Below, one piece after another: positions 14,656 to 58,116 of a DNA stretch of 64,000 nt (its first letter is position 1; each line of letters opens with the position of its first letter). The notes below the pieces were generated by a model. The model saw only the letters and a list, made by a program, of their open reading frames with translations, was not told where the DNA came from and searched no databases. This DNA is from a virus. The stretch is from positions 32,001 to 96,000 of IMG/VR virus record IMGVR_UViG_3300042549_004948; one strand, 5' to 3'. Made by a program: the position numbers and the translations under genes.

Positions 14656-15702
14656 ATGTCATTCACTAGATTAGACCCATCAGATTTTGTAGTATCAGCT
14701 GATTCAGTTACAGCGCCGGCATGGAGCAATAATGTACCTACTCTAACTGCTTTTTTTACAGCCTCTTCTACAGCAACAGGTAGTTATTATGTAGATGTTT
14801 ATAATGGAATTTTTACTAATATTAGTTCATCAGTACAATTCTCAGTAGCATACGGAAATATTTACGGTTCTGGATCTGCGCCTCTAAATTCATTAGTACC
14901 GGGAAACAGCCCTACTAGAATTACATTTGGGCAATTTAGAAATATTATTTATGGAGATGCAGAAAGCCCAGTAAATTTTGGGTCTGGTAATACTGGTTCT
15001 GTAGATTTAATTGCTATTCAAGTTGATAGAAATAGATATAAAGAGTCTTTGTTCCCAGGAACATTTAACCTTAAACTATCTTATAAAACAAATACAGCTC
15101 CAATTCAATTAACAGATAATTCAAATGATATATCTACTATAACATATTTAGATTGTGGTAGGGCTTTTAATATTATCTCTGGATCTAATGGAAGTGCTGC
15201 AGCCTCTCCTCTATTGAGTGGAGCTCCTGATAAAGGATACACTGCTTCTGGGTCATATGGACTATATCTTCCGGATGTTGGATTGATCTTATTAAATCCA
15301 AAGGCTTTATATTTAAATGCTGCCGGCGGAGGAATAGACTTAGCCTTTCTTACAGGATCAGCTAATAGTACAGTTCAAGCTTCTTCGTATAATAACAATG
15401 CTATTTTTGAAGCCATTAATTCAGGAAGTTTCTTTCAATTAAATTCTCAAGAAACAATATCTTCAGATTATATCTTTGTAAGGATTAAAAACCAAGATTA
15501 TAATTATACAACTAACCCATCATTTATATCTGGATCTGGTACTTTGATATACTCAAATTTTATCAACAGTCCTCAGACATTCCCTACAAGTGTTGGATTG
15601 TATAATGATAATAATGAACTACTTGCTGTAGCTAAAATGTCAAAACCTCTTACGAAAGATTTTACTAAAGAGGCTTTAATTAGAGTAAAACTAGACTTTT
15701 AA
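14656..15702 (+). CDS. virion structural protein (baseplate/fibre attachment)
   Basis: C-terminal VGLYNDNNELLAVAKMSKP...IRVKLDF motif. Confidence 0.7.
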   Translation: MSFTRLDPSDFVVSADSVTAPAWSNNVPTLTAFFTASSTATGSYYVDVYNGIFTNISSSVQFSVAYGNIYGSGSAPLNSLVPGNSPTRITFGQFRNIIYGDAESPVNFGSGNTGSVDLIAIQVDRNRYKESLFPGTFNLKLSYKTNTAPIQLTDNSNDISTITYLDCGRAFNIISGSNGSAAASPLLSGAPDKGYTASGSYGLYLPDVGLILLNPKALYLNAAGGGIDLAFLTGSANSTVQASSYNNNAIFEAINSGSFFQLNSQETISSDYIFVRIKNQDYNYTTNPSFISGSGTLIYSNFINSPQTFPTSVGLYNDNNELLAVAKMSKPLTKDFTKEALIRVKLDF

Positions 15703-15708
15703 AAATAA

Positions 15709-16938
15709 ATGTCAAGAGCGAAGAATACGATAAAGTTATCTGATATATCTTCGACTCCTATTAAAGTATTTTATTCTTCCTCTTATGCTAGTCAGTCTTT
15801 AATAGACTCAGGAATAACTACTAATAGGGGTACGAATATACCTCTGTCAGCTTCTATGTCTACAACTAATCAGACTAGAATGGTGAATTATAGAGTCATG
15901 AAACAACTCTATTATCAACCCTATTTAACAGGATCATTACTTAATTCAGCTTCTTATTGGGCACAGTCTTGGCAATCTACTGCCGCCTCTGGTACTTTTG
16001 ATGATACCAATCTAACATTTCCAGGTGAAATAGGAAAGAACATTAGCTTTTTAGCAATTCCTCCAATCACATTTGGTGAACAAATAAGTAGAAAGAGTTT
16101 TAATATAGCTTCAACAGATTCTGTTAGTTATAATATAATTGATGATGGAAATGGAAATATAGTTGACTCGCTTTCCAATTCTATTCACGTAGGAAACATA
16201 TTTTATGCACAAGGTATAGTTACGATCACAAATAACGATTATGTTGGCATAGCTTTAAATAATAACTTTACTATTAGTAGTAGTGTTATTCCTTCACCGT
16301 CAACTACTCCTAGCGTTTCTGTTACACCTAGTATATCAGCAACTCCTAGTGTAACTCCTAGTATATCTGTAACTCCTAGTATATCTGTAACTCCTAGTAT
16401 ATCTGTAACTCCTAGTGTAACTCCTAGTATATCTGTAACTCCTAGTATTTCTATGACTCCTACTTTGAGTCCTGGTATTTCATTAACACCTAGTATAACA
16501 GTAACTCCTAGTATTTCTCCTACTCGTACAGTGTCTGTCACCCCTAGTGTTACTAGAACGCCTAGTCCGACCCCGGCTTTTTATACTGTAACTGTAGATA
16601 GGGCATTTCAATCTGCTGTAACTGTTCCACCTCCTGCAAGATTCTGGTATAAATTAGGAGCTGGCGGTACTAAAACAGAAATAGGAACATCAACAAAAAC
16701 CCCTGTTTGTAATACAACAGCAACTCAAGGAACTATAACAAATATACCGGCCGGAACCGTATTATATCTAGGTGTAGAAGCTGATAGCGTAGGTGTTAGA
16801 TTTGGTCCAGGCGGTTGTGCAGGATCAGCTCTTTCAAATTGTGGTTTTGATTTCTCACCTTATTCATTTACGGTAACCTCTAGTACTACTGTGACATTAA
16901 AAGTTGCTATAAATACTGGAGATTATATGACATGTTAA
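15709..16938 (+). CDS. structural N-terminal domain + mucin-like TPS(I/V)SV repeats + Cys-containing C-terminal domain
   Basis: N-terminal part paralogous to 14656 protein (IIDDGNGN, VGNIFYAQGIVTIT); repeats at about aa 195-290. Confidence 0.8.
   Translation: MSRAKNTIKLSDISSTPIKVFYSSSYASQSLIDSGITTNRGTNIPLSASMSTTNQTRMVNYRVMKQLYYQPYLTGSLLNSASYWAQSWQSTAASGTFDDTNLTFPGEIGKNISFLAIPPITFGEQISRKSFNIASTDSVSYNIIDDGNGNIVDSLSNSIHVGNIFYAQGIVTITNNDYVGIALNNNFTISSSVIPSPSTTPSVSVTPSISATPSVTPSISVTPSISVTPSISVTPSVTPSISVTPSISMTPTLSPGISLTPSITVTPSISPTRTVSVTPSVTRTPSPTPAFYTVTVDRAFQSAVTVPPPARFWYKLGAGGTKTEIGTSTKTPVCNTTATQGTITNIPAGTVLYLGVEADSVGVRFGPGGCAGSALSNCGFDFSPYSFTVTSSTTVTLKVAINTGDYMTC
16291..16575 (+). repeat. coding tandem repeat, 18-nt/12-nt units (TPSISV/TPSV)
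   Basis: actcctagtatatctgta repeated. Confidence 0.9.
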
Positions 16939-16983
16939 ATAGTTTTATAATATTAGATAATAGCAAATAAATATATATATTAA

Positions 16984-19134
16984 GTGCAGGTATTAATAAC
17001 ATTATCATCATACGGAGACGCGGTAGGTCCTTTCGACATCTACTATGGCTACTATGCACCTGCATCAGAAACTCTGGTTATAGGTAATATAGATATAGAT
17101 ACATTAGCTTTAGGATATATAGTTAATTCTCCTGATGATATTAGTTATATTAGAGTAGAAAATTTAGACGAGTACGGTGGAAATGATCAGTATGTTTATT
17201 TTACACCTCCATCTCCTACGCCATCAGTATCTATTACTCCTAGCGTATCTGTAACTCCTAGTATATCTATTACTCCTAGTGTAACTCCTAGCGTATCTAG
17301 AACTCCTAGTGTATCCAAAACACCTAGCGTGTCTGTAACACCTAGCATATCCAAAACACCTAGTGTATCTGTAACTCCTAGCGTATCTGTAACACCTAGC
17401 ATATCCAAAACACCTAGTATATCTGTAACACCTAGCGTATCTGTGACACCTAGCGTATCTGTGACACCTAGCGTATCTGTGACACCTAGTGTATCTGTGA
17501 CTTCTAGTGTAACACCTAGCTTGTCAGCAACTCCATCAATATCTGTAACGCCTAGCATATCTAAAACTCCTAGTATATCTGTGACTCCTAGTGTAACACC
17601 TAGTGTGTCTATCACGCCTAGTATATCTATTACTCCATCTATATCAGTAACACCTAGTATTTCAATCACACCTACTATTTCAGTAACACCAGGCATATCA
17701 CCAACGCCTAGTGTATCAATAACACCAAGTATTAGTATAACACCTAGTATTTCTATAACTCCTAGTATTTCAGTTACTCCTAGTATTTCAGTAACTAGAA
17801 GTGTTACTCCTAGCATATCAATAACTCCTAGTATTTCAGTTACTCCTAGTATTTCAGTTACTCCTAGTATTTCAGTAACTAGAAGTGTTACTCCTAGCAT
17901 TTCAGTTACACCTAGTATATCTAGAACTCCTAGCGTATCTGTTACTTCTAGTGTAACTCCTAGTATTTCTGTAACGCCTAGTGTATCTGTAACTCCAAGC
18001 ATATCCGTAACTCCAAGTGTAACTCCTAGCGTATCGGTTACACCTTCTATATCTAGAACTCCTAGTATATCTGTAACTCCAAGTGTAACTCCTAGCGTAT
18101 CGGTTACGCCTTCTATATCTAGAACTCCTAGTATATCTGTAACTCCAAGTGTAACTCCTAGTATTTCTGTAACGCCTAGTATATCTAGAACTCCTAGCGT
18201 GTCTAGAACTCCTAGCGTAACACCTAGTATATCAAAAACTCCTAGTGTAACTCCAACTGTAACTCCTAGTACATCAGTACCTGCTATAGCATTTACTACA
18301 TCTACTAGCGATTTCGTAGGATTCTTTGAAGCTTGCGCATCTGGAACTCCAACTGGAGCTACTATATATCAAAGCCCGGTATATTCTGTTCCTACAGTTG
18401 GTCAGCAATTATATTCAAATCCTAATTTGATTTTTGCTAATCATTGGGCTCCAACTATAAGTTCAGAAGGATGGTTTAAATTTAATAGATCTAGTAGTAA
18501 TTGGGCAGTTCAAGTTAACTCTAATGGATTAATAATAGATGTTCTAGATTGTACAGTTGTTCCTTCAGTAACTCCTAGTATTTCAGTAACTCCTAGCGTC
18601 TCTGTTACTCCTAGTGTATCTGTAACTCCATCGATATCAGTTACACCTAGCATATCTGTAACACCAAGTATTTCTGTAACTCCTAGTATTAGTATAACAC
18701 CTAGTATTAGTATAACTCCAAGTATTTCTGTTACACCTAGTGTAACTATAACTCCAAGTAATACTGCTAAATACACAGTAACAGTTAGACATGGAAACTC
18801 TGCTACAAGAAGTGTTGGGGGTGTTACATCTGTAGTTTATAGGTTAGGTAGCGGCCCCCATACTAAGACTACATTAGCGTCAGGTATAACAGGACCAGAT
18901 TGTGGTACAACTGCTTTAACAGGAACTATTACTAATGTAACAGCAGGAACTGTACTTACTATAGGAGCTCAAATTGGAGGTACTTCAGATCAAACATTTG
19001 GTGTAGCTGGATGTGCCGGTGGATCAACTACCAATTGTGGATATGATACAACTCCTTATCAAGTAACAGTAAACTCTAATATTACTATAGAATTAAAACT
19101 AAACGTATCAGCAGGTGCTTATACTACTTGTTAA
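16984..19134 (+). CDS. mucin-like Ser/Thr/Pro-rich protein (putative virion fibre/appendage)
   Basis: two long TPS(I/V)S(V/I/K/R) tracts separating three globular domains; GTG start. Confidence 0.85.
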   Translation: MQVLITLSSYGDAVGPFDIYYGYYAPASETLVIGNIDIDTLALGYIVNSPDDISYIRVENLDEYGGNDQYVYFTPPSPTPSVSITPSVSVTPSISITPSVTPSVSRTPSVSKTPSVSVTPSISKTPSVSVTPSVSVTPSISKTPSISVTPSVSVTPSVSVTPSVSVTPSVSVTSSVTPSLSATPSISVTPSISKTPSISVTPSVTPSVSITPSISITPSISVTPSISITPTISVTPGISPTPSVSITPSISITPSISITPSISVTPSISVTRSVTPSISITPSISVTPSISVTPSISVTRSVTPSISVTPSISRTPSVSVTSSVTPSISVTPSVSVTPSISVTPSVTPSVSVTPSISRTPSISVTPSVTPSVSVTPSISRTPSISVTPSVTPSISVTPSISRTPSVSRTPSVTPSISKTPSVTPTVTPSTSVPAIAFTTSTSDFVGFFEACASGTPTGATIYQSPVYSVPTVGQQLYSNPNLIFANHWAPTISSEGWFKFNRSSSNWAVQVNSNGLIIDVLDCTVVPSVTPSISVTPSVSVTPSVSVTPSISVTPSISVTPSISVTPSISITPSISITPSISVTPSVTITPSNTAKYTVTVRHGNSATRSVGGVTSVVYRLGSGPHTKTTLASGITGPDCGTTALTGTITNVTAGTVLTIGAQIGGTSDQTFGVAGCAGGSTTNCGYDTTPYQVTVNSNITIELKLNVSAGAYTTC
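17203..18282 (+). repeat. coding tandem repeat, about 60 hexa/tetrapeptide units
   Basis: degenerate 18-nt units with synonymous variation. Confidence 0.9.
18562..18759 (+). repeat. second coding tandem repeat, about 11 hexapeptide units
   Basis: TPSISV units. Confidence 0.9.
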
Positions 19135-19148
19135 TAATTAAAAATAAA

Positions 19149-19180
19149 TTTTTTTATTTGAAATAAATTTTGTATATTAA
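19149..19180 (+). promoter_or_regulatory. putative early/middle-type promoter of glycosylation cassette
   Basis: T7-N17-TATATTAA, same architecture as T7-N17-TAGATTTA promoters at 47.6 and 51.3 kb. Confidence 0.45.
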
Positions 19181-19183
19181 GTT

Positions 19184-20443
19184 ATGGCTAAAATATTCGT
19201 TTCGATCGCAGCATACAGAGATCCCGAACTTCTTCCTACTTTAAAAGATCTCTTAAATAATTGTTCTGAACCTGATAATCTACACGTTTGTATCGGTTGG
19301 CAGCACTCTGAAGAAGATACTTGGGATAATTTAGATGAATATAAAAATGATTCTAGATTTACTATCTTAGACTATAACTATAAAGATGCTAAAGGTGTTT
19401 GTTGGATTAGAAAAAGAATTCAAGAACAATATAAAGGAGAGGATTATTACTTTCAGTTAGATTCTCACCATAGATTTAGTAAAGGTTGGGATACTACACT
19501 AAAAGATTATATTCACTATTTTCAGTCTAAAGGAAACAAAAAGCCTTTGCTATCAGCATATATACCAGGATACTTTCCAAAGAACGATCCAGAAGGTAGA
19601 AATGAAGAAGTGTGGAGTTTAAACATACAAAGGTTTATGCCTTCAGGAGTTATATTCTTAGAGCCTCATGGAGTAACTGAATGGAAAGAATTAACAGAGC
19701 CTTTTCCTACTAGATTTATATCGGCACACTTTATATTTACTTTAGGTAAGTTTGTTGAAGAAGTACCTTACGATGAGCATTTATATTTTCATGGCGAAGA
19801 ATCTTCTTTAGCTGCTAGAGCATTTACATTTGGTTATGATTTATTCTCTCCTCATAGAGCTATAGTTTGGCATGAATATACTAGAGATGGCAAGAAAAAA
19901 CATTGGGACGATAGTCAAGACTGGGCACAAAGAGATCAAGCATCTTATGCAAGATATAGAAAGTTAATGGGAGTAGAAGGTACTTGCAGTCCTTGTACAA
20001 GAAAATCATTGGGAGTAGAAAATTATTTTGGTGAAGAGAGAACATTCGAAGAATATGAAAAGTACGCAGGTTTAAAATTCTCTACACAACAAATACATAT
20101 AGAGGCAAAGAATGGTGAGTTTCCTCCAATCAAAAGTGACTATGAATCTGGTTTAGCTCACATAAGAAAATATTGCATCGATATTTATAAAGGATCACTT
20201 ACTGAGCAAGACTACGACTTTTTTGCTATAGCATTTCTAGATGATAAAGGAAATGATATTCATAGAAGAGATGCAGAAAAGAGTGAAGTATTAGCACTAT
20301 TTACAGAAAATAAAGATGATCAATTTATCCATATTTGGAGAACATTTGAACATCCAGATAAGCCTTACTCATGGAGAGTTTGGCCTCACACCGAATCTAA
20401 AGGGTGGATGGAAAGAATAGAACAAGTTATATCATATGAATAA
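19184..20443 (+). CDS. GT60-family (Gnt1/GlcNAc) protein N-acetylglucosaminyltransferase
   Basis: IFVSIAAYRDPEL, AKGVCWIR, QLDSHHRF, SAHFIF, EVPYD..LYFHGEE..LAARAFTFGYD motifs. Confidence 0.85.
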   Translation: MAKIFVSIAAYRDPELLPTLKDLLNNCSEPDNLHVCIGWQHSEEDTWDNLDEYKNDSRFTILDYNYKDAKGVCWIRKRIQEQYKGEDYYFQLDSHHRFSKGWDTTLKDYIHYFQSKGNKKPLLSAYIPGYFPKNDPEGRNEEVWSLNIQRFMPSGVIFLEPHGVTEWKELTEPFPTRFISAHFIFTLGKFVEEVPYDEHLYFHGEESSLAARAFTFGYDLFSPHRAIVWHEYTRDGKKKHWDDSQDWAQRDQASYARYRKLMGVEGTCSPCTRKSLGVENYFGEERTFEEYEKYAGLKFSTQQIHIEAKNGEFPPIKSDYESGLAHIRKYCIDIYKGSLTEQDYDFFAIAFLDDKGNDIHRRDAEKSEVLALFTENKDDQFIHIWRTFEHPDKPYSWRVWPHTESKGWMERIEQVISYE

Positions 20444-21707
20444 GAAACCTACAATATTAGTTCACTTACCGGCATACCGCGATCCTGAATTAATTCCAAC
20501 AATTAAAGACGCATTAGACAAAGCAAAGTATCCTAATCGTATACACTTCGGTATATGTAGGCAGTACCATCCAGAAGACGGATTTGATGATCTAACAGAA
20601 TATAAAACAGATAAAAGATTTAAAATCTATGAGTGCTTATATAGTGAAGCTCAAGGTCTTCCTTGGGCAAGAGCTATAATTAATGAGCAGTTATTAACTG
20701 ATGAAGACTATGTATGCCAACTAGATTCACATCATAGATTTGCTCAGGATTGGGATGAGACATTAATACAAATGCATCTTGATTTAGAAGCTAAAGGATA
20801 TAAGCCAATCATAGCAGGATACTCTCCTCTATATGATCCATTTAATGAACCTGCTGGTAGATCAATGGAACCATGGCAATCTCAATTTGTTTGTTTCTAT
20901 CCTCATGGAACTATATTCATTAGACCTGGTTTATTACACGGTTATGAGAATATGACTGAACTTCCGATGTCTAGATTCTTATGCGGACATTTTGACTTCG
21001 CAAGATCAGAATGGGCAAGAGATGTAAGACACGATCCTAATATATATTTCTCAGGTGAAGAGATTAATCTAACAGTCAGATCATACACTCATGGCTATGA
21101 TATGTTTCACCCGAATAAAATAGTAGTGTGGCATTCAACTATGCGTGAAGAAAGAGCTGGAAAATTAAAGTGGGATGATGATGTTAAACTAGGCAATGAT
21201 TGGTATAACAAGCAAGAGACCGCTAGGAAAAGAATAAGAGTCTTACTAGGGTCTGAACAGGATAGCTCGGTGGATTTGACTGGATACGGCCTGGGAACAG
21301 TCAGAACAGTTAGGGACTACGAGAAGTACGCAGGCGTTAATTTTAAAACAAGATCTGTTCAAAAGTATACTCTAGATAATCAATATCCTCCTAATCCACA
21401 TATTCAAGATGATCAACTTTGGGAAAAATCATTCATGGAATCATTTTATCACTTAGTAACAATATATAGACACGATTTCCCTAGGAATAATTATAAGCAC
21501 ATATTAGTAGCCTTTGATGATGATCAAGGTAATTCACTAAATAGTAAGTTTATAACAGATTATGAATTGCAGAATTTCATGACTAATGGAAACCACATTC
21601 ATTATGAAGAGTATTTCTTAACAGACAAAACGCCTGCTAGAGTAGTATTCTGGGGATACACAGAAGAAGACGGCTGGGTAGAAAGAATAGAACACAAAAT
21701 AGACTAG
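20436..21707 (+). CDS. second GT60-family protein GlcNAc transferase (paralog)
   Basis: LPAYRDPEL, AQGLPWAR, QLDSHHRF, YFSGEEINLTVRSYTHGYD motifs. Confidence 0.85.
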   Translation: MNKKPTILVHLPAYRDPELIPTIKDALDKAKYPNRIHFGICRQYHPEDGFDDLTEYKTDKRFKIYECLYSEAQGLPWARAIINEQLLTDEDYVCQLDSHHRFAQDWDETLIQMHLDLEAKGYKPIIAGYSPLYDPFNEPAGRSMEPWQSQFVCFYPHGTIFIRPGLLHGYENMTELPMSRFLCGHFDFARSEWARDVRHDPNIYFSGEEINLTVRSYTHGYDMFHPNKIVVWHSTMREERAGKLKWDDDVKLGNDWYNKQETARKRIRVLLGSEQDSSVDLTGYGLGTVRTVRDYEKYAGVNFKTRSVQKYTLDNQYPPNPHIQDDQLWEKSFMESFYHLVTIYRHDFPRNNYKHILVAFDDDQGNSLNSKFITDYELQNFMTNGNHIHYEEYFLTDKTPARVVFWGYTEEDGWVERIEHKID

Positions 21708-22993
21708 TGATAAATAAAAACGATATACAAAGTTTAGTAGGAAATCATGTAGCGCCCTACATTTATAATTCAAAAGTATTTGAACCAGGAAAAACTCCTA
21801 TTTACTATTCCGGACCTTATTGGGATAATAAAGAAGTAGAAGCCGCAATAGATACGTTTCTAAATGGGAAGTGGATAACTGCAGGAGAAAAGGTTTACAA
21901 GTTTGAAAATGCTTTTAGTAAAAAGTTTAACGTTAAGCATTCTCACATGGTTAATTCTGGAAGTTCTGCTAATCTAGTTTTAATAGCTGCTCTAAAGAAA
22001 AGATTTAACTGGGCAGATGATGATGAGATTATAGTGTCTCCGGTAGGGTTTGCTACAACTGTTTCTGTTCTATATCAAAATAAACTAAAAGCTGTTTTTG
22101 TTGATATTGAATGGCAAACGCTTAACTTTGATGTAAGTAGAATAGAAGAGAAAATAACTTCTAGAACAAAAGGTATTTTCGTATCGCCGGTATTGGGAAA
22201 TCCTCCTGATATGGATAAGCTTAAAGCTTTAGCAGACAAATATGATCTTAAACTTATAGGAGATAATTGTGATAGTTTAGGGAGTGCATGGAATGGTAAT
22301 TATATAACAGACTACTATGTAGCTTTTTCTAATTCATTTTATCCAGCCCATCATATTTCTACTGGTGAAGGTGGAATGATATGCACTAATGACGATGAGC
22401 TAAAGTCTTTATTCGTAAGCCTTTCATGGTGGGGAAGAGATTGTTATTGTATAGGATCTGCTAATTTACTTTCATGTGGAACATGCGGAAATAGATTTGA
22501 TAAATGGTTAGAAAACTATGATGGCATTATTGATCATAAGTATGTGTTTAGTGAAATGGGATATAATTTAAAACCATTAGATTTACAAGGTGCGATTGGT
22601 TTAGTACAACTTGATAAATTAGATGAAATTGAAACTAATAGAAAAGTTTCTAGAAATACTTTATCTAAAATATTCACTGATAATATACCTGGTTTAAGAA
22701 TACCAGACGTATTATCTAAAGCGGATCCATGTTGGTTTGGTACTCCATTTATATGTGACGAACCAGGATTAAAACATAGACTAGTAGAATATCTAGAGGC
22801 AAATAAAATACAAACTAGAAATTATTTTGCAGGCAATATCTTATTACACCCAGGTTATTCTAAACTTGATGACTATACTTTATATCCGGAAGCAAATAAA
22901 GTACTTGATAAGGTATTTTTTATAGGAGCGGCTCCACATTATACAGAACCGGTATTTGATTATATAAATGATGTTATAACTAAATTTAAATGA
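21707..22993 (+). CDS. rfbH: CDP-4-keto-6-deoxyglucose 3-dehydratase (E1; DegT/DnrJ fold)
   Basis: VNSGSSANL, DNCDSLG, SFYPAHHISTGEGG (His in place of Schiff-base Lys), Fe-S motif WGRDCYC...CG. Confidence 0.85.
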   Translation: MINKNDIQSLVGNHVAPYIYNSKVFEPGKTPIYYSGPYWDNKEVEAAIDTFLNGKWITAGEKVYKFENAFSKKFNVKHSHMVNSGSSANLVLIAALKKRFNWADDDEIIVSPVGFATTVSVLYQNKLKAVFVDIEWQTLNFDVSRIEEKITSRTKGIFVSPVLGNPPDMDKLKALADKYDLKLIGDNCDSLGSAWNGNYITDYYVAFSNSFYPAHHISTGEGGMICTNDDELKSLFVSLSWWGRDCYCIGSANLLSCGTCGNRFDKWLENYDGIIDHKYVFSEMGYNLKPLDLQGAIGLVQLDKLDEIETNRKVSRNTLSKIFTDNIPGLRIPDVLSKADPCWFGTPFICDEPGLKHRLVEYLEANKIQTRNYFAGNILLHPGYSKLDDYTLYPEANKVLDKVFFIGAAPHYTEPVFDYINDVITKFK

Positions 22994-23667
22994 AAATATT
23001 AGTACTAGGAGATGGTTTATTAGGAAGTGAGATTGTAAGGCAAACAGGGTGGAATTATATTTCTAGAAAAAAAGACAATATTGATTTTATTAATGACTCA
23101 CTATCTTTTTATTTAGGACATTATGATATTATACTAAATTGTTTAGCTAATACAGATACGTACTCAACAGATAGAGAGCGTGTATATTCTATCAATTATC
23201 ATTTTATTATTAAGTTATCAAATCTTTGTAAAATATTAAATAAAAAATTAATTCACATATCTACAGATCATGTTTATGCTGATTCAGATTCTGATATTGA
23301 TGAAAATGGTTTAGCTATACCGGCTCCAAATTTTTATTCATATTCAAAATTATTAGCAGATGAATATGTTATGTTTAATAATAATGATCATTTAATATGT
23401 AGATGTTCATTTAAACCAAAACCATTTCCGTATAATAAAGGTTGGGTTGATCAATATGGAAATTTTGATTATGTTGATGTTATAGCTAATTTAATTATAC
23501 AATTAATAAATAAAAATGCTAATGGAGTTTATAATGTAGGAACAGAGAAAAAAACAATATATCAATTAGCTAAACAAACAAATCCAGATATCATGCCAGG
23601 TTATAGACCAAATAATGTACCTAGTGATATAACAATGAACTTAGATAAACTAAATTCTATTTTATGA
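22990..23667 (+). CDS. RmlD-like NDP-4-keto-sugar reductase
   Basis: GDGLLG, HISTDHVY and YSYSK SDR motifs. Confidence 0.75.
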   Translation: MKILVLGDGLLGSEIVRQTGWNYISRKKDNIDFINDSLSFYLGHYDIILNCLANTDTYSTDRERVYSINYHFIIKLSNLCKILNKKLIHISTDHVYADSDSDIDENGLAIPAPNFYSYSKLLADEYVMFNNNDHLICRCSFKPKPFPYNKGWVDQYGNFDYVDVIANLIIQLINKNANGVYNVGTEKKTIYQLAKQTNPDIMPGYRPNNVPSDITMNLDKLNSIL

Positions 23668-24596
23668 ATTTAACTTTTTTCTTTGATAAAGAAGGAGCCG
23701 GGAATCCTTATTTTAAATATATCTACAATACTATATTTGATTTATTTAATTTAAAATTTCCTGAGCACTCTATAAAGCACCGACAACCAGAAGGGTCATA
23801 TCAAAGTTCTCCTGGTGGGATGTCTAATTTTCAAATTATAAATGATGAAAATAATAAAACTATTTTAATGTCTTTTTGGGACAGAGGAATGAATACATTT
23901 TTACCTGGTTTAGGATGGGAAAAATATAAAATAGTTCAATATATAGGAGGTCTAGGAATGAACTTAAATTCTAACCAGATAAAAGAAACTTATGGAATAG
24001 ACCATTCTAATTTCCAATATCCATTAGGAGTTCCTAATAGTTATGATTATCTAGATCAAGTAAGAGTAGAATATAATCCAGAACAAAAGATAAGAAAAGC
24101 TATTTTTATAGGCGCTATATATGGAACAAGAACTCCACTGTCAGAGCTACTATCAAAACATGAATTATTTGAAGTACTAGATAACTCAACAGGGTATCAC
24201 GGTTTGGAATATTATAAAAAGATAAATGAATATAGAGTATCGTTATCTTTTAATGGAAATGGTGAATTTTGTTTACGAGATTTAGAATCTATGGGGTTAG
24301 GAATACCATGCCTAAGATCTGAGTTAAAGACGCAGTTTTATAATCCACTTATACAAGACTACCATTATATTAATGGAGGGAGAGTTTGTTCAAATGCTTG
24401 GTTTACATATTCTGATTCTAAAATAGAAGATATCGCAGATGAATACATAAATGCATTAGAACTTATTATAGATGATTATGATAAATTAAAAAAAATCTCT
24501 TCTAATGGGCAACAGTATTTTAATTCTTATTCTAAACCTGATTATATTATTGACTTATTTTTTAAACTAGTTAAAATACATGAACTCAATAATTAA
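23664..24596 (+). CDS. putative GT-B-fold glycosyltransferase
   Basis: C-terminal SLSFNGNGEFCLRDLESMGLG..., KISSNGQQYF pattern; cassette context. Confidence 0.5.
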   Translation: MNLTFFFDKEGAGNPYFKYIYNTIFDLFNLKFPEHSIKHRQPEGSYQSSPGGMSNFQIINDENNKTILMSFWDRGMNTFLPGLGWEKYKIVQYIGGLGMNLNSNQIKETYGIDHSNFQYPLGVPNSYDYLDQVRVEYNPEQKIRKAIFIGAIYGTRTPLSELLSKHELFEVLDNSTGYHGLEYYKKINEYRVSLSFNGNGEFCLRDLESMGLGIPCLRSELKTQFYNPLIQDYHYINGGRVCSNAWFTYSDSKIEDIADEYINALELIIDDYDKLKKISSNGQQYFNSYSKPDYIIDLFFKLVKIHELNN

Positions 24597-25458
24597 AGAA
24601 AAGATTGCCATTTGTTACTCGTGCGCAGGAGAAAGTTATCGAGAGAGTGCGGTCCGTCAATTAACAGAACACTACTTCGATGATGACAATTTATTTTACT
24701 TTATAATAACAGATGATAAAAAGTATTTTGATAATATAAAAAGGAAAAACCTAATTGTCAATGAATTAAAAGACTTTTATGAAGAGTTTCCTCACGTAGA
24801 AAAATATGAGGCTTTATTAGAATCAGTAGATAAAAATGATTATGCTAAACAATTTGTAGAATCGGGGTATTTATATTCTTTTTCATTGATGAGATTTCAT
24901 TTATTACAAGCTTATAAACATGGAATAACTAATGTATCTATAATGTGTACAGATACTAATATAAATTTTGAATTATTTAATAATAATTTATTTGATATTA
25001 AAAATACAATTTATAATGCGGTATCAGAATGGGATACAAATATCGATAAAAAAGATATGGATATTATTAAAAACTATTTAAAAGAAAACCATAATCTAGT
25101 ACCTTCAGAAGTCGTACGTGTTTTAGACGCAGCTGCAAGATTTTTTATTTTTAGTGATTTAGATAATATGTATAATTTTTTTAATATATGGAATCAAACT
25201 ATTATATATCTCTATGAAAATAACTTAATGAGAAGATTCGCAGGCTCATATGTATATCATGATGAATATATATTAGCTCCTATCTATAATGTATTTAAAC
25301 TCACCGAAAGAGATTATCATTCAACAAGTAGAATATTCACTGTTATACATAACCAAATTCATGAAAGATTTTGGAAAGCAGGAGGATCTATTGATGGTAT
25401 CATGGATCACATTAATTATAATGAATTTTTAAAAATAAACAATTTATCTAATGGCTAA
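24580..25458 (+). CDS. orphan putative glycosyltransferase (GT-A-like)
   Basis: YFIITD motif; paralog of 27126-28142. Confidence 0.45.
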   Translation: MNSIIKEKIAICYSCAGESYRESAVRQLTEHYFDDDNLFYFIITDDKKYFDNIKRKNLIVNELKDFYEEFPHVEKYEALLESVDKNDYAKQFVESGYLYSFSLMRFHLLQAYKHGITNVSIMCTDTNINFELFNNNLFDIKNTIYNAVSEWDTNIDKKDMDIIKNYLKENHNLVPSEVVRVLDAAARFFIFSDLDNMYNFFNIWNQTIIYLYENNLMRRFAGSYVYHDEYILAPIYNVFKLTERDYHSTSRIFTVIHNQIHERFWKAGGSIDGIMDHINYNEFLKINNLSNG

Positions 25459-27136
25459 TATAAGTTATCACGGATCTCATAATGGAGGTTTAGTTATAGA
25501 AAACAATGGTGAAATCCTATGTGTTGTAGAATTTGAAAGATTCATCAATAGTAAAAATGTTGGGATGTCTCAATATAAAATGCCTAGACATATTATAATT
25601 TGTCTTGAGCAAATATTAGATTGGGTTTATAAAGAGTATGGAATAGAAGAATTTGAAAATTGTTATTTTTCATCTACAGATTTTATAGGAGAATCTTTTA
25701 CAGGCCCCTATCAGCTTTTTCAAACTTACAACATGATAAAAGCTAAAAACTATATTCATGGAACGCATCACGAATCTCATGCGGCTGGTTGTTTTTATCA
25801 ATCGCCATTTAAAGAAGCTATAGTATTCTCTTTCGATGGAGGCGGAGACGATGGAGAGTTTAATGTATACCATGCCGTAAGAGGTCAAGAGCTTAATAGA
25901 TTAGCTCAACTTTTAAATCCAACATATAATAGACCTCACCTATATTATAACTTAGGATTTGCGTATATGATATTCGGGCAATATCTAAAAGACATAACCA
26001 TAGATAATGTTTCAGATGGTAACTTAGTATGGCCAGGAAAAATAATGGGATTAGTTTCCTACGGTAAATGGAAAGAAGAGTGGTTAGATGCATTCATAAC
26101 ATTTTTTAAAGATGATCCAGACGGGCATGAAAATGATTATGTTGGTAAATTAAATACTCTAGGTGAAAAAATAGGAATCTCATTTGATATAAATAATAGA
26201 TTTGAAGGACAGTTAGCTTATGATGTTGCGGCTACCGCACAAAGAGCTTTTGAAGAGTGCTTTATAGAAGTAGCAAAACCATATTTCGAAGAGTATCCAG
26301 ATCTTCCTATTTGTATAACTGGAGGCTGTGCTTTAAACATTATATTGAATACTAGAATAAAACAAGAGTTTAATAAAGAAGTTTTTGTAGGACCTAATCC
26401 AAATGATTGCGGAATAGCTTTAGGATTAATGTTAAAACATTTAAAGCCTGAAAATGCTATTGATATAACTTATAAAGGGCTTCCTATATTAGATAAAAAT
26501 TTACTAGTCCAAAGAGTTTGTGAGCATAATAATGTTAGGAGATTAATGGAAAGAGACGAGGCATATCATCCGGTTGAACAATATGATCCTTCGATAGTAG
26601 TTCAAGATTTATTAAGTGGTAAAATAATTGGTGTAGTTAAAGGACAATCAGAGCACGGTCCTAGAGCATTAGGACATAGAAGTATATTATGTAACCCATC
26701 CATACCAGAAATGAAAGATGTATTAAATGCTAAAGTTAAAAATAGAGAGTGGTATAGACCATTTGCACCGGTTGTTAGATTAGAAGACGTAAGTAAATAT
26801 TTTGAATGGGAAGGAGAATCTAGGTGGATGAGTTTCTGCCCGACAGTTAGAGAAGAGTGGAGAGAAAAGTTAGCCGCTATTACTCATGTTGATGGAACTG
26901 CTAGAGTACAAACAGTAACAAAAGATCAAAATGAATTTTTATATAACCTACTTACTGAATTTGAAAAATTAACAGGCGTAGGAGTTTTACTAAATACGTC
27001 TTTTAATGTTAATGGAAAACCTATACTATCTACATATGCAGACGCATTTGAAATTTATACCAAGACACAGTTAGATTGTTTATTATTAGAAGATTATTAT
27101 ATAAGAAAAGAAGATTATAAAAGATATGAAAAATAA
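25451..27136 (+). CDS. O-carbamoyltransferase (NodU/CmcH family)
   Basis: HHESHAA, DGGGD, GGCALN, EHGPRALGHRSIL, REWYRPFAP, HVDGTARVQ, LLNTSFN motifs. Confidence 0.92.
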   Translation: MANISYHGSHNGGLVIENNGEILCVVEFERFINSKNVGMSQYKMPRHIIICLEQILDWVYKEYGIEEFENCYFSSTDFIGESFTGPYQLFQTYNMIKAKNYIHGTHHESHAAGCFYQSPFKEAIVFSFDGGGDDGEFNVYHAVRGQELNRLAQLLNPTYNRPHLYYNLGFAYMIFGQYLKDITIDNVSDGNLVWPGKIMGLVSYGKWKEEWLDAFITFFKDDPDGHENDYVGKLNTLGEKIGISFDINNRFEGQLAYDVAATAQRAFEECFIEVAKPYFEEYPDLPICITGGCALNIILNTRIKQEFNKEVFVGPNPNDCGIALGLMLKHLKPENAIDITYKGLPILDKNLLVQRVCEHNNVRRLMERDEAYHPVEQYDPSIVVQDLLSGKIIGVVKGQSEHGPRALGHRSILCNPSIPEMKDVLNAKVKNREWYRPFAPVVRLEDVSKYFEWEGESRWMSFCPTVREEWREKLAAITHVDGTARVQTVTKDQNEFLYNLLTEFEKLTGVGVLLNTSFNVNGKPILSTYADAFEIYTKTQLDCLLLEDYYIRKEDYKRYEK

Positions 27137-28142
27137 ACCTGTAGTTGTTACTTGGGGATTAGGACCTAGTTATAGAGATAGAGTCAAACAAAATTTTTTA
27201 GAAAGTATTTCTATGGGATATAGTGATACCATGGATTATATTATTTTAACTGACTTACCGTCTGATTTTGATGAATTAAGAAGTAGCACAAATAAAATAA
27301 TAGATGTCATTAATATTCATGAAGTAAGAAAAGATTATCTATGGTCTATAGATATAGAATATATACCTACTAATCAAGAAACTTATGGAAAAGATTATAG
27401 AGATAATTTATATAATAAAAACTTTTTTTCTTATTCTTTAAATAGATTCTCTTTACCAAGAATAGCAGAACTAGGATACACTAAGTTTATAATGCATGAT
27501 CCAGATGCAAATTTAAAATATGATAAAATAGTTTCTGGAGAAATATCTGAAGAAGAATTCTGGAGTGAATTTGATACTCCAATAAATTCAATGAAGGCAT
27601 GTCATAAAGAAGAATTAAAAATAGAGTTAGGAAAATTTCATGATACCGCAGCAATGGGATCTGCAAGTTACTCTGGTTTACAATTAGCATCTATTATAAT
27701 GGATAGGCTAAATAATAAATATGATACGCATAATACAGATCCTATAATACGTAATCTACCAATAACAGAAGGTCCTTTTAGATATTATAATTTTGATTCT
27801 GTAGACACTGTTAAAAAATATTTTGATGTTTGGAATAAATGTTGTAAAATTAGTTATTCAAATAACATTTTTAGAGGGTGTTCTGAATGTGGTGGGTATA
27901 TGCTTTGTGATTATATTCCTGTAGGAGTAGCTAACAAGTACTGTGACATTAAAGTTTTAGACTTTAGTAAAAAATATTATGACATAAAAATATATTTTAC
28001 AGATAGATACTTTATTCCAAAGTCTATGAACTTCGCAGATGGGAGTGGGTTCATACCAGCAGATACTATAGAACAGTTTTATGAAATAAATAAAGAAAAA
28101 ATACAAATTTTAAAGTCAGAAAATAGATGGCCGATATTTTAA
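27126..28142 (+). CDS. orphan putative glycosyltransferase (GT-A-like)
   Basis: YIILTD and DPD motifs; paralog of 24580-25458. Confidence 0.45.
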   Translation: MKNKPVVVTWGLGPSYRDRVKQNFLESISMGYSDTMDYIILTDLPSDFDELRSSTNKIIDVINIHEVRKDYLWSIDIEYIPTNQETYGKDYRDNLYNKNFFSYSLNRFSLPRIAELGYTKFIMHDPDANLKYDKIVSGEISEEEFWSEFDTPINSMKACHKEELKIELGKFHDTAAMGSASYSGLQLASIIMDRLNNKYDTHNTDPIIRNLPITEGPFRYYNFDSVDTVKKYFDVWNKCCKISYSNNIFRGCSECGGYMLCDYIPVGVANKYCDIKVLDFSKKYYDIKIYFTDRYFIPKSMNFADGSGFIPADTIEQFYEINKEKIQILKSENRWPIF

Positions 28143-28151
28143 AATATTAAT

Positions 28152-31100
28152 ATGAAAAAAAAGCTATTCAAAAAAGTAAGGGGTTTTGAGAATATAAAAT
28201 TAGAACCTACTATAATAAATGATGATCAATTAGATTATCTTGTTCTTTATTTATTAGATTGTATAGATAATAATATAGACGGCGATGTTGTAGAACTAGG
28301 TTGCTTTGTAGGAGAGTCTAGTAAGTATTTAAGAAAATCAATTGAACAATCAGAATCTAGTAAGAAGCTATATGTGTATGATTCATTTGAAGGACTTCCA
28401 GAGTTAACAAAATATGAAGAGGGCACTGGTTGGAGAGAGGGTACTTTAAATACTACGGAAGATATATTAACAAAGAATTTTGTACAGAATGGCTTAGAGC
28501 TTCCAATTATTACTAAATCTTGGTTTAAAGATATACCAAATGAAAGACTCCCAGAAAAAATATCATTTGCTTTTCTTGATGGAGATTTTTATAATTCAAT
28601 ATATGACAGTCTAACTAAAATATATGATAGAGTAGAAAACGGCGGATACATTTGTTTTCATGATTATGATAGAAACGATTTACCAGGAGTGAAAGCTGCT
28701 ATAGTAGACTTCTTCTCAGAAAGGTCTATTAACTATGAAATACTAAAAGTATGTGATCAATTAGCTATAATCAAAAAAAATGAAAAAATAGTATCTTTAA
28801 GTATAGAAAAATATGATAGAGCAAATATAGAATCAGAAGAATCTTTGGACTATTATATAAAAAAATATGGCACAGATAAATCTATAAGTGGATATACTCC
28901 AATGTATGAATGTATATTTGATGATCTTAGATCTGAAAGATTAGCTTTATTAGAAATAGGAATAGGTAGTTTAGATAATCATGTAATAGGAAATTTTATA
29001 CAAACAAAATCAATTTACTATGATCACTATGTACAAGGCGGATCTTTAAGAGTCTGGAGAGATTATTTTCCAAAAGCAGAAATACACGGCATCGATATCG
29101 CAGACGATTGTAAATTTTCAGAAGATAGAATTTCAACATTTATTTGTGATTCTAGAGATAAAAGTGAATGCGATTCGTATCTAAAAGAAAACACTTATGA
29201 TATTATAATTGATGACGGACTCCACAAAGCAAGTGCACAACTTCAAACGTTAAAAAACTTTTTTGATAGAGTTAAAAAAAATGGGTATTATATTATAGAA
29301 GACTTAGGTGGTGGCGGAGATGGAACTAATTTATATGCAGATAGAAAACAAGACGTTATTGATATTATAAAAGATCATGAATGGTTTTTTAAAAATAATT
29401 TTTTAGCTATTAAAAAAACAAATTCAAAAAGAGGAGAGTTATCTTCATTAACAGAATTTAAAAAGGAAAATAATCGTCCTAAATCTGACTTAACAATAGT
29501 TTCTGGATTATGGGATATAGGAAAACAAAATAGATCATTTGATCATTACTTAATGTGCTTTGAAAAATTCCTAGAAATAGATCAAAATCTGTTTTTATTT
29601 ATACCTAAAGAATTAGAAGACTTAGTATGGACCAAAAGAAGTAAACATAACACAAGAATAAAAATAGTTGAATTAGAAGATGTTAAAAATCTATATGGTC
29701 CTTTTTGGGATAGGACACAAGAAATAAGAAAGTCTGAAGACTGGATTAATCAAGCAAATTGGTTAGCTAACTCTCCACAAGGATCTCTTGAGTGGTATAA
29801 TCCTATTGTGATGTCTAAACTTGCAATACTTCATGATGCTAGCATTTATAATCCATTTAGAACAGAGAATTTTATTTGGTTAGATGCTGGAATTAGTAAT
29901 ACTATAAACTATAATTTATTAATAGAATCTGATTTCTTTGATAAGCTACCATCATATCTAGATCCATTCTTATTTATTCAATATCCATATCCATATTATA
30001 ATAAAGGTATCGGAGAAGTACATGGTTTTAATTGGGAAAAACTAAATGAATATGCCGGTGGAGTTGTTGAGTGGATTAGTAGAGGTGGATTATTTGGAGG
30101 AAAAAAAGAAGTTATCTCTGATGTTAATAGTTACTATTGGCACTTGCTAGATAATAGTCTGAATGAAAACTTAATGGGAACAGAGGAAAGTCTGTTTTCT
30201 ATTCTAGCAAAGAAATACCCTGAGATATTTAGAACTTCAAAAATAAATATAAATGGGCATATTCAAGAATTTGTAGAAGCAGTTATAAATAATACGGCAG
30301 TACTAGATCCTATTCCTGAAGATAGGATAAAAAGCAAACACAAATTTGTAAATGTAGATAATTTAAAGGTCAGTCTTTATATGCTTACGTTTAACTTCCC
30401 GCATCAAGTTGAACACACTATTCAAAAATGGTTGAAGCATGAGAAGTGGATAACTAATACCAGAAATATACTTATAGATAATTCTACAAACGATGAAGCT
30501 AGAATAGCTAATGCAGAAATTTGTAAGAAGTATAATTTTGAGCATATAATAACAAATGAAAATACTGGGATCAATGGCGGTAGATTTAGAGCGGCTCAAC
30601 ACTTTCAAGAATCGGATAGCGATTACTATATATTCTTAGAAGACGATATGGGAATAAACTCTCCTAGTGATACTACATTTTGTAGAAATGGATTTAGAAG
30701 GCACATTCCGAACTTATATGATAGGGTTTTAAAAATAATTCATGATACAGATATAGACTTCTTAAAACTATCTTACACAGAAGTTTACATGGACAATAAT
30801 ATCCAAGTATCTTGGTATAATGTTCCTCAAAATATAAGGTCAGAATTTTGGCCTGACTATGATAAACTGCCAGTGCAAGGTTTAGATCCAAATTGTCCTA
30901 GAACTAAGTTCAATGAAATAGAAGTATTAGACGGATTAAGTTATGCTACAGGAGAGATCTACTATTGTAACTGGCCAACTATATGTGGTAAGAAGGGAAA
31001 CCAGAAAATGTTCTTAGATGTTACGTGGCAAAGTCCTTTTGAACAAACTTGGATGAGTTATATGTATCAAGAAACTAAAAAGGGAAATTTGAAACCTGCG

Positions 31101-31172
31101 GTATTATTGGCCAGCCCAATAGATCATGATAGAATAGCTCACTATAAGCCTGAAGAAAGAAGGGAAAACTAA
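28152..31172 (+). CDS. multidomain TylF-type O-methyltransferase / class I methyltransferase / HtrL(YibB) / GT2-like fusion
   Basis: GDVVELGC..DSFEGLP..LDGDFYNS..HDY; YGTDK..LLEIGIG..DIIIDDGLH; TIVSGLWDIG..IWLDAG..GGLFGG..GTEE; LIDNS..FLEDD. Confidence 0.8.
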   Translation: MKKKLFKKVRGFENIKLEPTIINDDQLDYLVLYLLDCIDNNIDGDVVELGCFVGESSKYLRKSIEQSESSKKLYVYDSFEGLPELTKYEEGTGWREGTLNTTEDILTKNFVQNGLELPIITKSWFKDIPNERLPEKISFAFLDGDFYNSIYDSLTKIYDRVENGGYICFHDYDRNDLPGVKAAIVDFFSERSINYEILKVCDQLAIIKKNEKIVSLSIEKYDRANIESEESLDYYIKKYGTDKSISGYTPMYECIFDDLRSERLALLEIGIGSLDNHVIGNFIQTKSIYYDHYVQGGSLRVWRDYFPKAEIHGIDIADDCKFSEDRISTFICDSRDKSECDSYLKENTYDIIIDDGLHKASAQLQTLKNFFDRVKKNGYYIIEDLGGGGDGTNLYADRKQDVIDIIKDHEWFFKNNFLAIKKTNSKRGELSSLTEFKKENNRPKSDLTIVSGLWDIGKQNRSFDHYLMCFEKFLEIDQNLFLFIPKELEDLVWTKRSKHNTRIKIVELEDVKNLYGPFWDRTQEIRKSEDWINQANWLANSPQGSLEWYNPIVMSKLAILHDASIYNPFRTENFIWLDAGISNTINYNLLIESDFFDKLPSYLDPFLFIQYPYPYYNKGIGEVHGFNWEKLNEYAGGVVEWISRGGLFGGKKEVISDVNSYYWHLLDNSLNENLMGTEESLFSILAKKYPEIFRTSKININGHIQEFVEAVINNTAVLDPIPEDRIKSKHKFVNVDNLKVSLYMLTFNFPHQVEHTIQKWLKHEKWITNTRNILIDNSTNDEARIANAEICKKYNFEHIITNENTGINGGRFRAAQHFQESDSDYYIFLEDDMGINSPSDTTFCRNGFRRHIPNLYDRVLKIIHDTDIDFLKLSYTEVYMDNNIQVSWYNVPQNIRSEFWPDYDKLPVQGLDPNCPRTKFNEIEVLDGLSYATGEIYYCNWPTICGKKGNQKMFLDVTWQSPFEQTWMSYMYQETKKGNLKPAVLLASPIDHDRIAHYKPEERREN

Positions 31173-31186: not shown

Positions 31187-31492
31187 ATGCCAATAATTAC
31201 ACCAAGACCATACACAGTTTCTTTTGTAGCAGAAAGTACTATATACCAAAATGAGGTTAGATGCTTAGTTAATGAGAATGACTTTAACTATACTCAGAAC
31301 CCATCTGCCGTACAATTAGGAACCTCAGGATCATATATAAATGCCGTAACCGGATCTGATTTTCATCCGTACTCTTCAATGGTAGGATTATATAATGACA
31401 AGGATGAACTTCTAGTCGTAGGTAAATTAGCTAGGCCATATCCAGTACCACAGAACACAGACGTTACCTTTATTATAAGATGGGATTCATAG
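31187..31492 (+). CDS. C-terminal part of split structural protein
   Basis: DFNYTQNPS..VGLYNDKDELLVVGKLARP..FIIRWD matches C-terminus of 14656 protein. Confidence 0.75.
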   Translation: MPIITPRPYTVSFVAESTIYQNEVRCLVNENDFNYTQNPSAVQLGTSGSYINAVTGSDFHPYSSMVGLYNDKDELLVVGKLARPYPVPQNTDVTFIIRWDS

Positions 31493-31512: not shown

Positions 31513-31974
31513 ATGGGTTTTATGAAAAAGTGGTTATATAAAGAATTAGACTCTACTAAGGAGTTTTACACCCTAGAAGATTTTCCTCAAGACACTATTG
31601 GATTCGTATATAAAGTTACTAATATATGTGACGGCCGCATATACGTGGGAAAGAAGGTTCTTTTCAATAATCTAACAAAGACATTAACCAAGAAAGAGAT
31701 CGCGGCATGGTCATCGCCTGGGCGCGTCCCACGCAAGAAGAAGGTGATAAAGGAGTCTGACTGGGAGTCTTATTGGGGAAGCAACAAGCACATAAAAGAG
31801 GATTTAAAGAATCTGGGTGAAAAGTGCTTCACTAGAGAGATCCTGACATTCTGTAAGACTAAGAAACAACTAACCTACTATGAAGTTTATTGGCAAATGA
31901 AATTAGAAGTGCTTGCCATAAACTCTTACAATGATAATATTCAAGGTAGGTTTTATAGAAAGGATCTAGAATAA
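31513..31974 (+). CDS. GIY-YIG-like protein
   Basis: GFVYKVTN..GRIYVGKK, YWGS, FTREIL and YNDNI motifs; late motif at 31500-31507. Confidence 0.65.
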   Translation: MGFMKKWLYKELDSTKEFYTLEDFPQDTIGFVYKVTNICDGRIYVGKKVLFNNLTKTLTKKEIAAWSSPGRVPRKKKVIKESDWESYWGSNKHIKEDLKNLGEKCFTREILTFCKTKKQLTYYEVYWQMKLEVLAINSYNDNIQGRFYRKDLE

Positions 31975-31998
31975 AAAACCCGACCTTACGGGGCCGGG
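31973..31998 (-). terminator. intrinsic terminator at convergent junction
   Basis: minus strand CCCGGCC-CCGTAA-GGTCGGG followed by T6. Confidence 0.75.
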
Positions 31999-58115: not shown

Positions 58116-58116
58116 A

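Follow-up and report, generated by a model that had tools for sequence, protein, structure and literature searches.

The stretch of DNA analysed here, called the window (64,000 nucleotides (nt), bases 32001-96000 of the virus record IMGVR_UViG_3300042549_004948, which has 162,469 bases, is rated 95% complete and is labelled G000), carries on its plus strand a cassette in which two fibre-position proteins with Ser/Thr/Pro-rich repeat stalks are followed by a pair of GT60-family transferases and by a set of sugar genes. As judged from the sequence, this phage probably sugar-coats its own fibres, and we consider a phage-encoded module for protein O-glycosylation of tail appendages to be the likely function of the cassette. 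An earlier note on the same DNA had proposed that substrate and enzymes form one module, which is now supported by the family membership of the enzymes and by their co-distribution with the repeats; none of the conditions under which the note saw itself refuted came up. The cassette is a real feature, and comparisons give good support to its putative mechanism.

Repeat stalks and GT60 transferases

The four genes on which this reading is built are arranged as follows, with the parts of the repeat proteins given in amino acids (aa) and nucleotides and the family matches with their expectation values (E):

15709..16938, plus strand: fibre-position protein 1, 409 aa, made up of the N-terminal domain at aa 1-186, one TPSxSV stalk at aa 187-295 (nt 16267-16593) and the C-terminal domain at aa 296-409, which contains Cys
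16984..19134, plus strand: fibre-position protein 2, 716 aa, with TPSxSV stalks at aa 70-435 (nt 17191-18288) and aa 526-595 (nt 18559-18768), plus a small middle domain and the C-terminal domain also present in protein 1
19184..20443, plus strand: GT60-family transferase a, with a GT-A catalytic domain and a β-rich C-terminal domain of about 100 aa (PF11397, E 1e-67, 229.6 bits)
20436..21707, plus strand: GT60-family transferase b, paralogous to a (36% identity) and with intact catalytic motifs (PF11397, E 8e-51, 174 bits)

The repeat units start with TP[STG] 17 times in protein 1 and 71 times in protein 2, reaching 88 units in total, mostly spaced by 6 residues and at times by 4, 8 or 10. 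Regarding their composition, the stalks hold 49% Ser+Thr, 17-18% Pro and 23-31% Val+Ile, with few Lys/Arg and no Asp/Glu in the 545 repeat residues. The count bears out the earlier note, which had seen about 90 TPS(I/V)SV-type units, about half Ser/Thr, in these two proteins, and both possess a Ser/Thr/Pro-rich tandem domain of the acceptor type, as found in mucin-type systems. The 18-nt DNA units of the array match each other by 67-75% only, which argues that the array is maintained at the protein level and is not a product of recent slippage. In addition, the whole 162-kb genome was searched for T-P-x-x-x-x-T-P by means of a degenerate DNA pattern that requires Ser/Thr-type codons at positions 3 and 5 and has its reversed form as a built-in control. 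All 63 occurrences lie within the genes of proteins 1 and 2, and the reversed pattern gave 0.

The position of protein 2 corresponds to the annotated tail fibre gene of phage immuto, where a 357-aa hypothetical protein precedes genes annotated as tail fibre and tail spike. Among the homologues of protein 1, the N-terminal domain is kept, the stalk is marked by its Ser/Thr/Pro richness and varies between 100 and 764 residues, and the C-terminal domains are unrelated, therefore showing the layout of exchangeable fibre or receptor-binding proteins. Thus, gene position and alignment reveal a conserved N-terminal attachment domain and an exchangeable distal domain at the end of the baseplate operon, as in tail fibres, and in two loci (L014 and L018) proteins 1 and 2 are fused as one open reading frame (ORF). 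A tblastn search of protein 2 against deposited phages gave no match, the low-complexity filter having probably masked the repeats.

The Cys-containing C-terminal domain common to both proteins (about 120 residues, window 16594-16938 and 18769-19134) has no recognisable family, and relatives differ there. A language-model look-up was uninformative, with a best score of 0.87 to unnamed clusters, and BLASTP of this domain against the fibre protein of relative G009, described below, found no similarity.

The two genes next to the stalks had been read by the earlier note as GT60-type transferases carrying YRDPEL, DSH and GEE motifs, and the hidden Markov model search of both that it asked for confirms them as true members of PF11397 (the 'GlcNAc' family, which holds the GT60 enzymes), with scores far above the family cut-off of 21 bits. 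The YRDPEL, DSH(H) and GEE motifs are present in both enzymes, and R12 and D13 of YRDPEL, D93, S94, H95 and H96, G204 and E206 of GEE, and H230 are invariant across 21 homologues of 36-74% identity. When the whole genome was searched with PF11397, the same two genes were found, and 14 control genomes gave no match. Moreover, transferases a and b both match one PHROG annotated as 'glycosyltransferase' (E 8e-137 and 9e-102), and the pair is kept in most related loci. The family is very large: at E 1e-10 or better it comprises 3,651 clusters, almost all of them annotated as hypothetical, and cultured phages (XacN1, Xoo-sp13, CM1 and RAS14) carry a GT60-type enzyme as well. Homologues with about 41% identity are also seen on L058 and L059, IMG/VR records labelled GVMAG, which are contigs binned as giant-virus genomes.

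The transferase was modelled with confidence, and the predicted structure matches the GT-A fold, with a DxH-type motif and conserved residues on the catalytic face. The closest solved folds to this model are the Ser/Thr-directed mucin-initiating polypeptide GalNAc-transferases (GT27), showing a structural kinship with peptide-directed enzymes. By sequence, transferase a has no match among the chains of the Protein Data Bank; no Gnt1 entry is present among the fold matches listed, which does not rule out kinship. The β-rich C-terminal domain of about 100 residues, present in both a (window 20141-20440) and b, is modelled confidently and lies outside the Pfam model. GT27 enzymes have a lectin domain in the corresponding place, so this part of the phage enzymes might serve in targeting.

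In Dictyostelium, Gnt1 modifies a hydroxyproline of Skp1, for which PF11397 is named, and each repeat unit contains one Pro, so the Pro of the TPS unit could be hydroxylated and then receive the sugar in place of Ser/Thr. Such a route is highly improbable, as no match to PF13640 or PF03171 (2-oxoglutarate-Fe(II) oxygenases) is present in the 95%-complete genome, the closest solved folds are Ser/Thr-directed, and the parallel stalk of relative G009 is mostly Thr with few Pro.

Hydrophobic segments of the membrane type are absent from a, b and all other cassette proteins, and no flippase, lipid-carrier transferase or oligosaccharyltransferase is found among the Pfam matches of the cassette. Consequently, a direct glycosylation in the cytoplasm fits this set of genes.

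The insertion site and its history

The cassette is bordered by three features:

14656..15702, plus strand: conserved baseplate-operon gene, directly upstream of the cassette, with 69-74% identity to its counterparts in relatives whether or not these have the cassette
31187..31492, plus strand: 101-aa ORF, read as the split-off C-terminal domain of an ancestral gene
31513..31974, plus strand: SegE-like GIY-YIG homing endonuclease (PF19835, E 2e-28), the downstream edge of the variable site

In the cassette-less relatives G006 and G008, the homologue of the 14656-15702 gene is followed by a single 297-aa gene (the 297-aa ORF at L402:10439-11332; L404). The first approximately 174 residues of its product match the N-terminal domain of protein 1 (41-42% identity), and its last approximately 90 residues match residues 11-101 of the 101-aa ORF product (74% identity), with the SegE-like gene directly after. 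As both halves of the 297-aa gene flank the cassette, the 15-kb segment that begins with the first stalk and extends to 31186 is an insertion. By this comparison, the insertion has split an ancestral gene of the baseplate operon. The N-terminal domain of that gene became fused to a stalk followed by a new distal domain, and its C-terminal domain persists as a separate conserved ORF, with 62-79% identity among relatives. The earlier note had placed the repeat proteins at the end of the tail/baseplate operon; the block is more than such a simple end, being a 15-kb insertion that splits a conserved gene of that operon.

The C-terminal approximately 90 aa of the 14656-15702 product are paralogous to the 101-aa ORF product (36% identity over 70 aa). 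In the Microcystis phage Mel-JY01 (L160, 25017-32150), a row of at least four genes is paralogous to the 14656-15702 gene, with a C-terminal domain of the 101-aa ORF type, therefore indicating an expandable family of proteins of the baseplate periphery.

The SegE-like gene is found at this place in relatives that have the cassette, that lack it or that hold another one. The last case is found in relative G009 (L403:4302-12075), where the same insertion site holds a different insert of 6.4 kb, encoding a 511-aa fibre protein with an N-terminal domain of the protein 1 type and a poly-Thr/Ser stalk of about 100 residues with few Pro. It also encodes a second small Thr-rich protein (a weak 'Mucin' Pfam match), a tail-tip-domain protein, a methyltransferase and a GT2 enzyme, and no GT60 is found in it. 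Because another stalk chemistry is paired here with another transferase at the same site, G009 gives independent support to the stalk and its enzymes being one functional unit.

This location also bears on a possible role of transferases a and b in glycosylating modified bases of the phage DNA against restriction, for which T-even phages and others whose DNA is glycan-hypermodified are the precedent. Decoration of DNA by phage glycosyltransferases is well established (as cited in PMC12619734), and the genome has a gene of the thymidylate-synthase family. That gene, however, lies about 63 kb from the cassette, which is itself embedded in a baseplate-operon gene; the enzyme fold is closest to the peptide-directed GT27 enzymes, and such a role gives no reason for the strong association with TP repeats described below. 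We hold a DNA target to be the least probable of the explanations considered.

Co-occurrence of repeats and GT60 genes

The earlier note had also suggested examining whether TPSxS-repeat genes and GT60 genes occur together, and across related and unrelated phages they do so far above the control, as would be expected for an acceptor and its initiating enzyme in a mucin-type system. A Ser/Thr/Pro-rich ORF is located directly upstream of the GT60 gene in 17/17 loci whose GT60 is at least 64% identical, and such ORFs lie nearby in the more distant loci L032, L042, L060, L061 and L064. In five distant GT60 phages known from long contigs, repeat genes are present in 5/5, with 7-118 pattern matches against 0-1 in the control. 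Their repeat proteins connect globular, adhesin-like domains, and a distance of 50-90 kb separates the repeat genes from GT60 in several of these phages. All the tested GT60 records with at least 82% completeness have repeats (G000, G001, G002, G015, G016 and XacN1); G017 (100% complete) has GT60 and repeats too, but it was chosen for the repeats and is hence no independent test. Among relatives chosen solely by the gp6-like baseplate protein, 3/11 have PF11397 together with 46-60 repeat matches and 8/11 have neither, as is also the case for the cultured relatives immuto and Mel-JY01, in which neither GT60 nor repeats were found.

The reverse test started from the repeats: 2.9 million viral contigs were scanned for four consecutive units, which gave an arbitrary set of records, and of these the 45 searchable ones of at least 27 kb were kept, with 39 records chosen for collagen-like repeats, another fibre-type repeat, as the control. 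PF11397 is present in 19/45 repeat-selected records and in 1/39 control records (odds ratio 28, Fisher's exact p = 1.5e-5), and the lone control match is weaker (best E 2e-26) than those of 17/19 repeat-selected records (1e-49 to 1e-64). Many of the repeat records that lack GT60 have plain (TP)n linkers or are fragments less than 25% complete.

The Xanthomonas jumbo phage XacN1 (AP018399), from a different lineage, has a GT60 homologue (ORF334, 38% identity) directly followed by a carbamoyltransferase, with a homologue of the HtrL/GT2 fusion of the cassette three genes later. The repeat pattern matches 77 times in its genome, with 0 in the control, and TP stalks of up to 270 residues occur in the large proteins ORF369, 370, 372 and 384, adjoining the tail sheath genes. 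Schiff staining of its virions revealed at least two glycoprotein bands, which the authors suggested to be due to the two glycosyltransferases of the phage, ORF328 and ORF334 (PMC5852040). By analogy, these bands may be taken as an experimental hint of virion glycosylation by a GT60 phage.

These distributions also weigh on the main rival explanation, that the stalks are plain, unglycosylated flexible or β spacers and the sugar cassette serves another target, such as other virion proteins or glycans of the host envelope, and travels as cargo of a variable site. The site is indeed an exchange hot spot beside a homing endonuclease, TP-rich linkers without GT60 exist in some complete viral records, the stalks are high in Val/Ile with an alternating pattern, and a second sugar cassette in the window shows that glycans are made for purposes not necessarily involving proteins 1 and 2. 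However, GT60 and TP repeats co-occur even when tens of kb apart and in an unrelated jumbo phage lineage, with a 28-fold enrichment (odds ratio) over the collagen control; in addition, the nearest folds are peptide-directed transferases, and the solubility of all cassette proteins is a poor fit to the modification of envelope glycans. Unglycosylated spacers are thus unlikely, although they deserve more weight than a hydroxyproline or a DNA target.

Several points nevertheless count against glycosylated stalks. Regarding the proteins themselves, a classical mucin domain would have less Val+Ile than the 23-31% seen here, and the alternation of polar and apolar residues could form β structure. 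The structure model of protein 1, built from an alignment of 7 sequences, is unusable (mean predicted local distance difference test score, pLDDT, 38) and is silent on the order or disorder of the stalk, and the two grounds for placing proteins 1 and 2 in the virion are gene position and N-terminal homology. As for the distribution, co-occurrence within the clade partly comes from physical linkage in one cassette and may reflect few evolutionary events, the collagen control set may differ in habitat and lineage, and TP repeats also occur in several complete records that lack GT60, for the most part as plain (TP)n linkers. A stricter three-unit pattern finds repeats in only 6/20 fragmentary GT60 records, which is not read as independence, because these fragments are 9-53% complete and the two kinds of genes can be 50-90 kb apart. 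Moreover, the Schiff-positive bands of XacN1 carry no protein identity, and a second transferase, ORF328, is present in that phage.

With these points weighed, our assessment leans modestly towards a wider form of the O-glycosylation reading: in large aquatic and plant-pathogen phages, true GT60 polypeptide N-acetylhexosamine (HexNAc) transferases would build mucin-like brushes on Thr/Pro/Ser stalks of tail appendages, with the stalk-plus-enzyme unit being an exchangeable cassette that moves into fibre genes, as a widespread prokaryotic-virus counterpart of the eukaryotic mucin-type O-glycosylation.

Tailoring genes, proposed mechanism and known systems

After the transferase pair, the cassette continues with the following genes:

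21707..22993, plus strand: DegT-family pyridoxal/pyridoxamine phosphate (PLP/PMP) enzyme (PF01041, E 6e-70; best NCBIfam match NF011936 RfbH, E 1e-107, below the equivalog cut-off)
22990..23667, plus strand: short RmlD/epimerase-like nicotinamide adenine dinucleotide (phosphate) (NAD(P)) sugar reductase, 225 aa (PF04321, E 8e-15; TIGR01214, E 4e-15)
23664..25458, plus strand: two genes, 310 and 292 aa, in overlapping reading frames, with no match in Pfam, PHROG or NCBIfam
25451..27136, plus strand: NodU-like O-carbamoyltransferase (PF16861, E 3e-65; PF02543, E 8e-27; NodU, E 1e-45)
27126..28142, plus strand: 338-aa gene with no family match in Pfam or NCBIfam
28152..31172, plus strand: 1006-aa fusion of a TylF-type O-methyltransferase, an HtrL/YibB-like and a GT2-like part (PF05711, E 2e-26; PF09612, E 4e-14; PF00535, weak)

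The RfbH-like, RmlD-like and NodU-like matches and the TylF/HtrL/GT2 fusion agree with the sugar synthesis, elongation and tailoring genes seen at this place by the earlier note. The 21707..22993 product, first taken for an 'aminotransferase', is most like RfbH, a 3-dehydrase of dideoxy-sugar synthesis. The genes of the cassette overlap or sit at most 49 nt apart. Over 63 related loci, the GT60 pair and the 1006-aa fusion form a constant core with variable genes in between; the fusion is the most constant companion of the pair, with homologues in most loci and in XacN1. Weak homologues of the two genes at 23664..25458 are found at the same position in some related cassettes.

Concerning the surroundings, the plus-strand genes of the window from about 5.9 kb onward include the gp25-like and gp6-like baseplate wedge proteins, upstream of the cassette. 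By the gp6-like protein, the closest cultured relatives are the Flavobacterium phage vB_FspM_immuto (46% identity, 160 kb) and Mel-JY01 (45%); together with the low G+C of the window (29-37%), this makes a Bacteroidota host of the Flavobacterium type plausible. The general O-glycosylation of Bacteroidota is periplasmic and acts on the motif D(S/T)(A/I/L/V/M/T). It was set aside as a modifier of the stalks, which have no Asp, as this motif needs D. A GC-rich hairpin with a T-run is located at window 31979-31998, where the long plus-strand block and the minus-strand genes converge, and is the sole convincing terminator-like site in 19 kb; promoter and terminator scans of window 13.5-32.5 kb gave counts no different from shuffles. 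Outside the window, the match of the thymidylate-synthase family (G000:C1:126227-126865) has four in-frame stops over the matched span, with an open frame of 217 aa.

The second large sugar cassette is encoded on the minus strand at 53304-63986 and may run beyond the end of the window. It contains two GT2 genes, one of them fused to a GT10 fucosyltransferase-like domain, a GDP-mannose-4,6-dehydratase-like enzyme, another epimerase, a split transketolase-like pair, several methyltransferases including the C-methyltransferase type, a HAD phosphatase and a shikimate-dehydrogenase-like gene. This cassette could be a source or extender of unusual sugars for the stalk glycans.

In the proposed mechanism, the N-terminal domains would attach proteins 1 and 2 to the baseplate periphery, from which a long uncharged Thr-Pro-Ser-(Ile/Val)-Ser-(Val) stalk would lead to a variable distal domain, both proteins thus being predicted parts of the virion. 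Late in infection, in the host cytoplasm, the soluble transferases a and b would use the repeats as acceptor and put the first sugar, by homology an α-linked HexNAc from a sugar bound to uridine diphosphate (UDP), on the Ser/Thr hydroxyls of the stalk and not on a Pro-derived residue. Elongation and modification of the glycan would then be the task of the HtrL/GT2/methyltransferase fusion, the carbamoyltransferase and the deoxy-sugar enzymes. This would yield a stiff, hydrated stalk resistant to proteases, whose putative physical role is to keep the distal domains off the baseplate. The possible roles offered by the earlier note were spacer, shield and lure.

Compared to the protist GT60 enzymes (the mucin-type initiators of Dictyostelium and Trypanosoma cruzi, and the Skp1 Gnt1), the phage transferases share PF11397 far above the cut-off, the GT-A fold and the DxH-type motif, and they resemble Gnt1 in being soluble, without signal or membrane segment. 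The protist enzymes act on Thr/Ser/Pro-rich repeat domains (PMC8724618). The differences are that the phage enzymes are virus-encoded, putatively active in the bacterial cytoplasm and form a conserved pair, with the extra β-rich C-terminal domain of about 100 aa. The GT27 enzymes of animals and apicomplexans belong to another CAZy/Pfam family and are membrane proteins of the Golgi. The phage enzymes, by contrast, are soluble, and no ricin-type lectin domain was recognised in their sequences.

Among phages, mycobacteriophages carry O-linked glycans on their own virion proteins, at the C-termini of capsid and tail-tube proteins (Freeman et al. 2023, as cited in PMC12619734). Both cases have phage glycosyltransferase genes near structural genes. 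However, the candidate acceptors of this phage are long internal tandem repeats, found only in two fibre-position genes, and not short C-terminal extensions of capsid or tail-tube subunits, and they go with a GT60 initiator and a much larger tailoring set. XacN1 resembles the present phage in having GT60 beside a carbamoyltransferase and the HtrL/GT2 homologue, with TP stalks in large proteins near tail genes; it differs in lineage, host phylum and genome size, and has one GT60 gene and dispersed repeat genes. Its authors drew no connection between the glycoproteins and the repeats or the GT60 family.

Mimiviruses glycosylate their capsids and fibrils with virus-encoded enzymes. Like these and other giant viruses such as chloroviruses, whose glycosylation is cited in PMC5852040, the phage encodes nucleotide-sugar synthesis, transferases and tailoring enzymes independent of the secretory glycosylation of a host. 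Giant viruses differ in their eukaryotic hosts and in their transferase families and acceptors. We know of no tandem mucin-like acceptor paired with a GT60 initiator described in them and, to our knowledge, glycosylation of particles by phage enzymes is documented in few phages only, none with mucin-like repeat acceptors or GT60. In the literature search, no paper was found linking GT60/PF11397 to phages or to Thr/Pro stalks.

If the O-glycosylation reading is true, a very large family of unnamed environmental proteins, the 3,651 clusters mentioned above, would gain a function, and glycosylated fibre stalks would account for many of the giant Thr/Pro-rich proteins of phages that are now called 'hypothetical'. 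Soluble enzymes that glycosylate peptides and are active in bacteria could also serve as tools. Moreover, glycan coats would become a variable in phage adsorption, stability and immune recognition, and the eukaryotic mucin-type initiators would have abundant relatives in bacterial viruses, which bears on the origin of the pathway.

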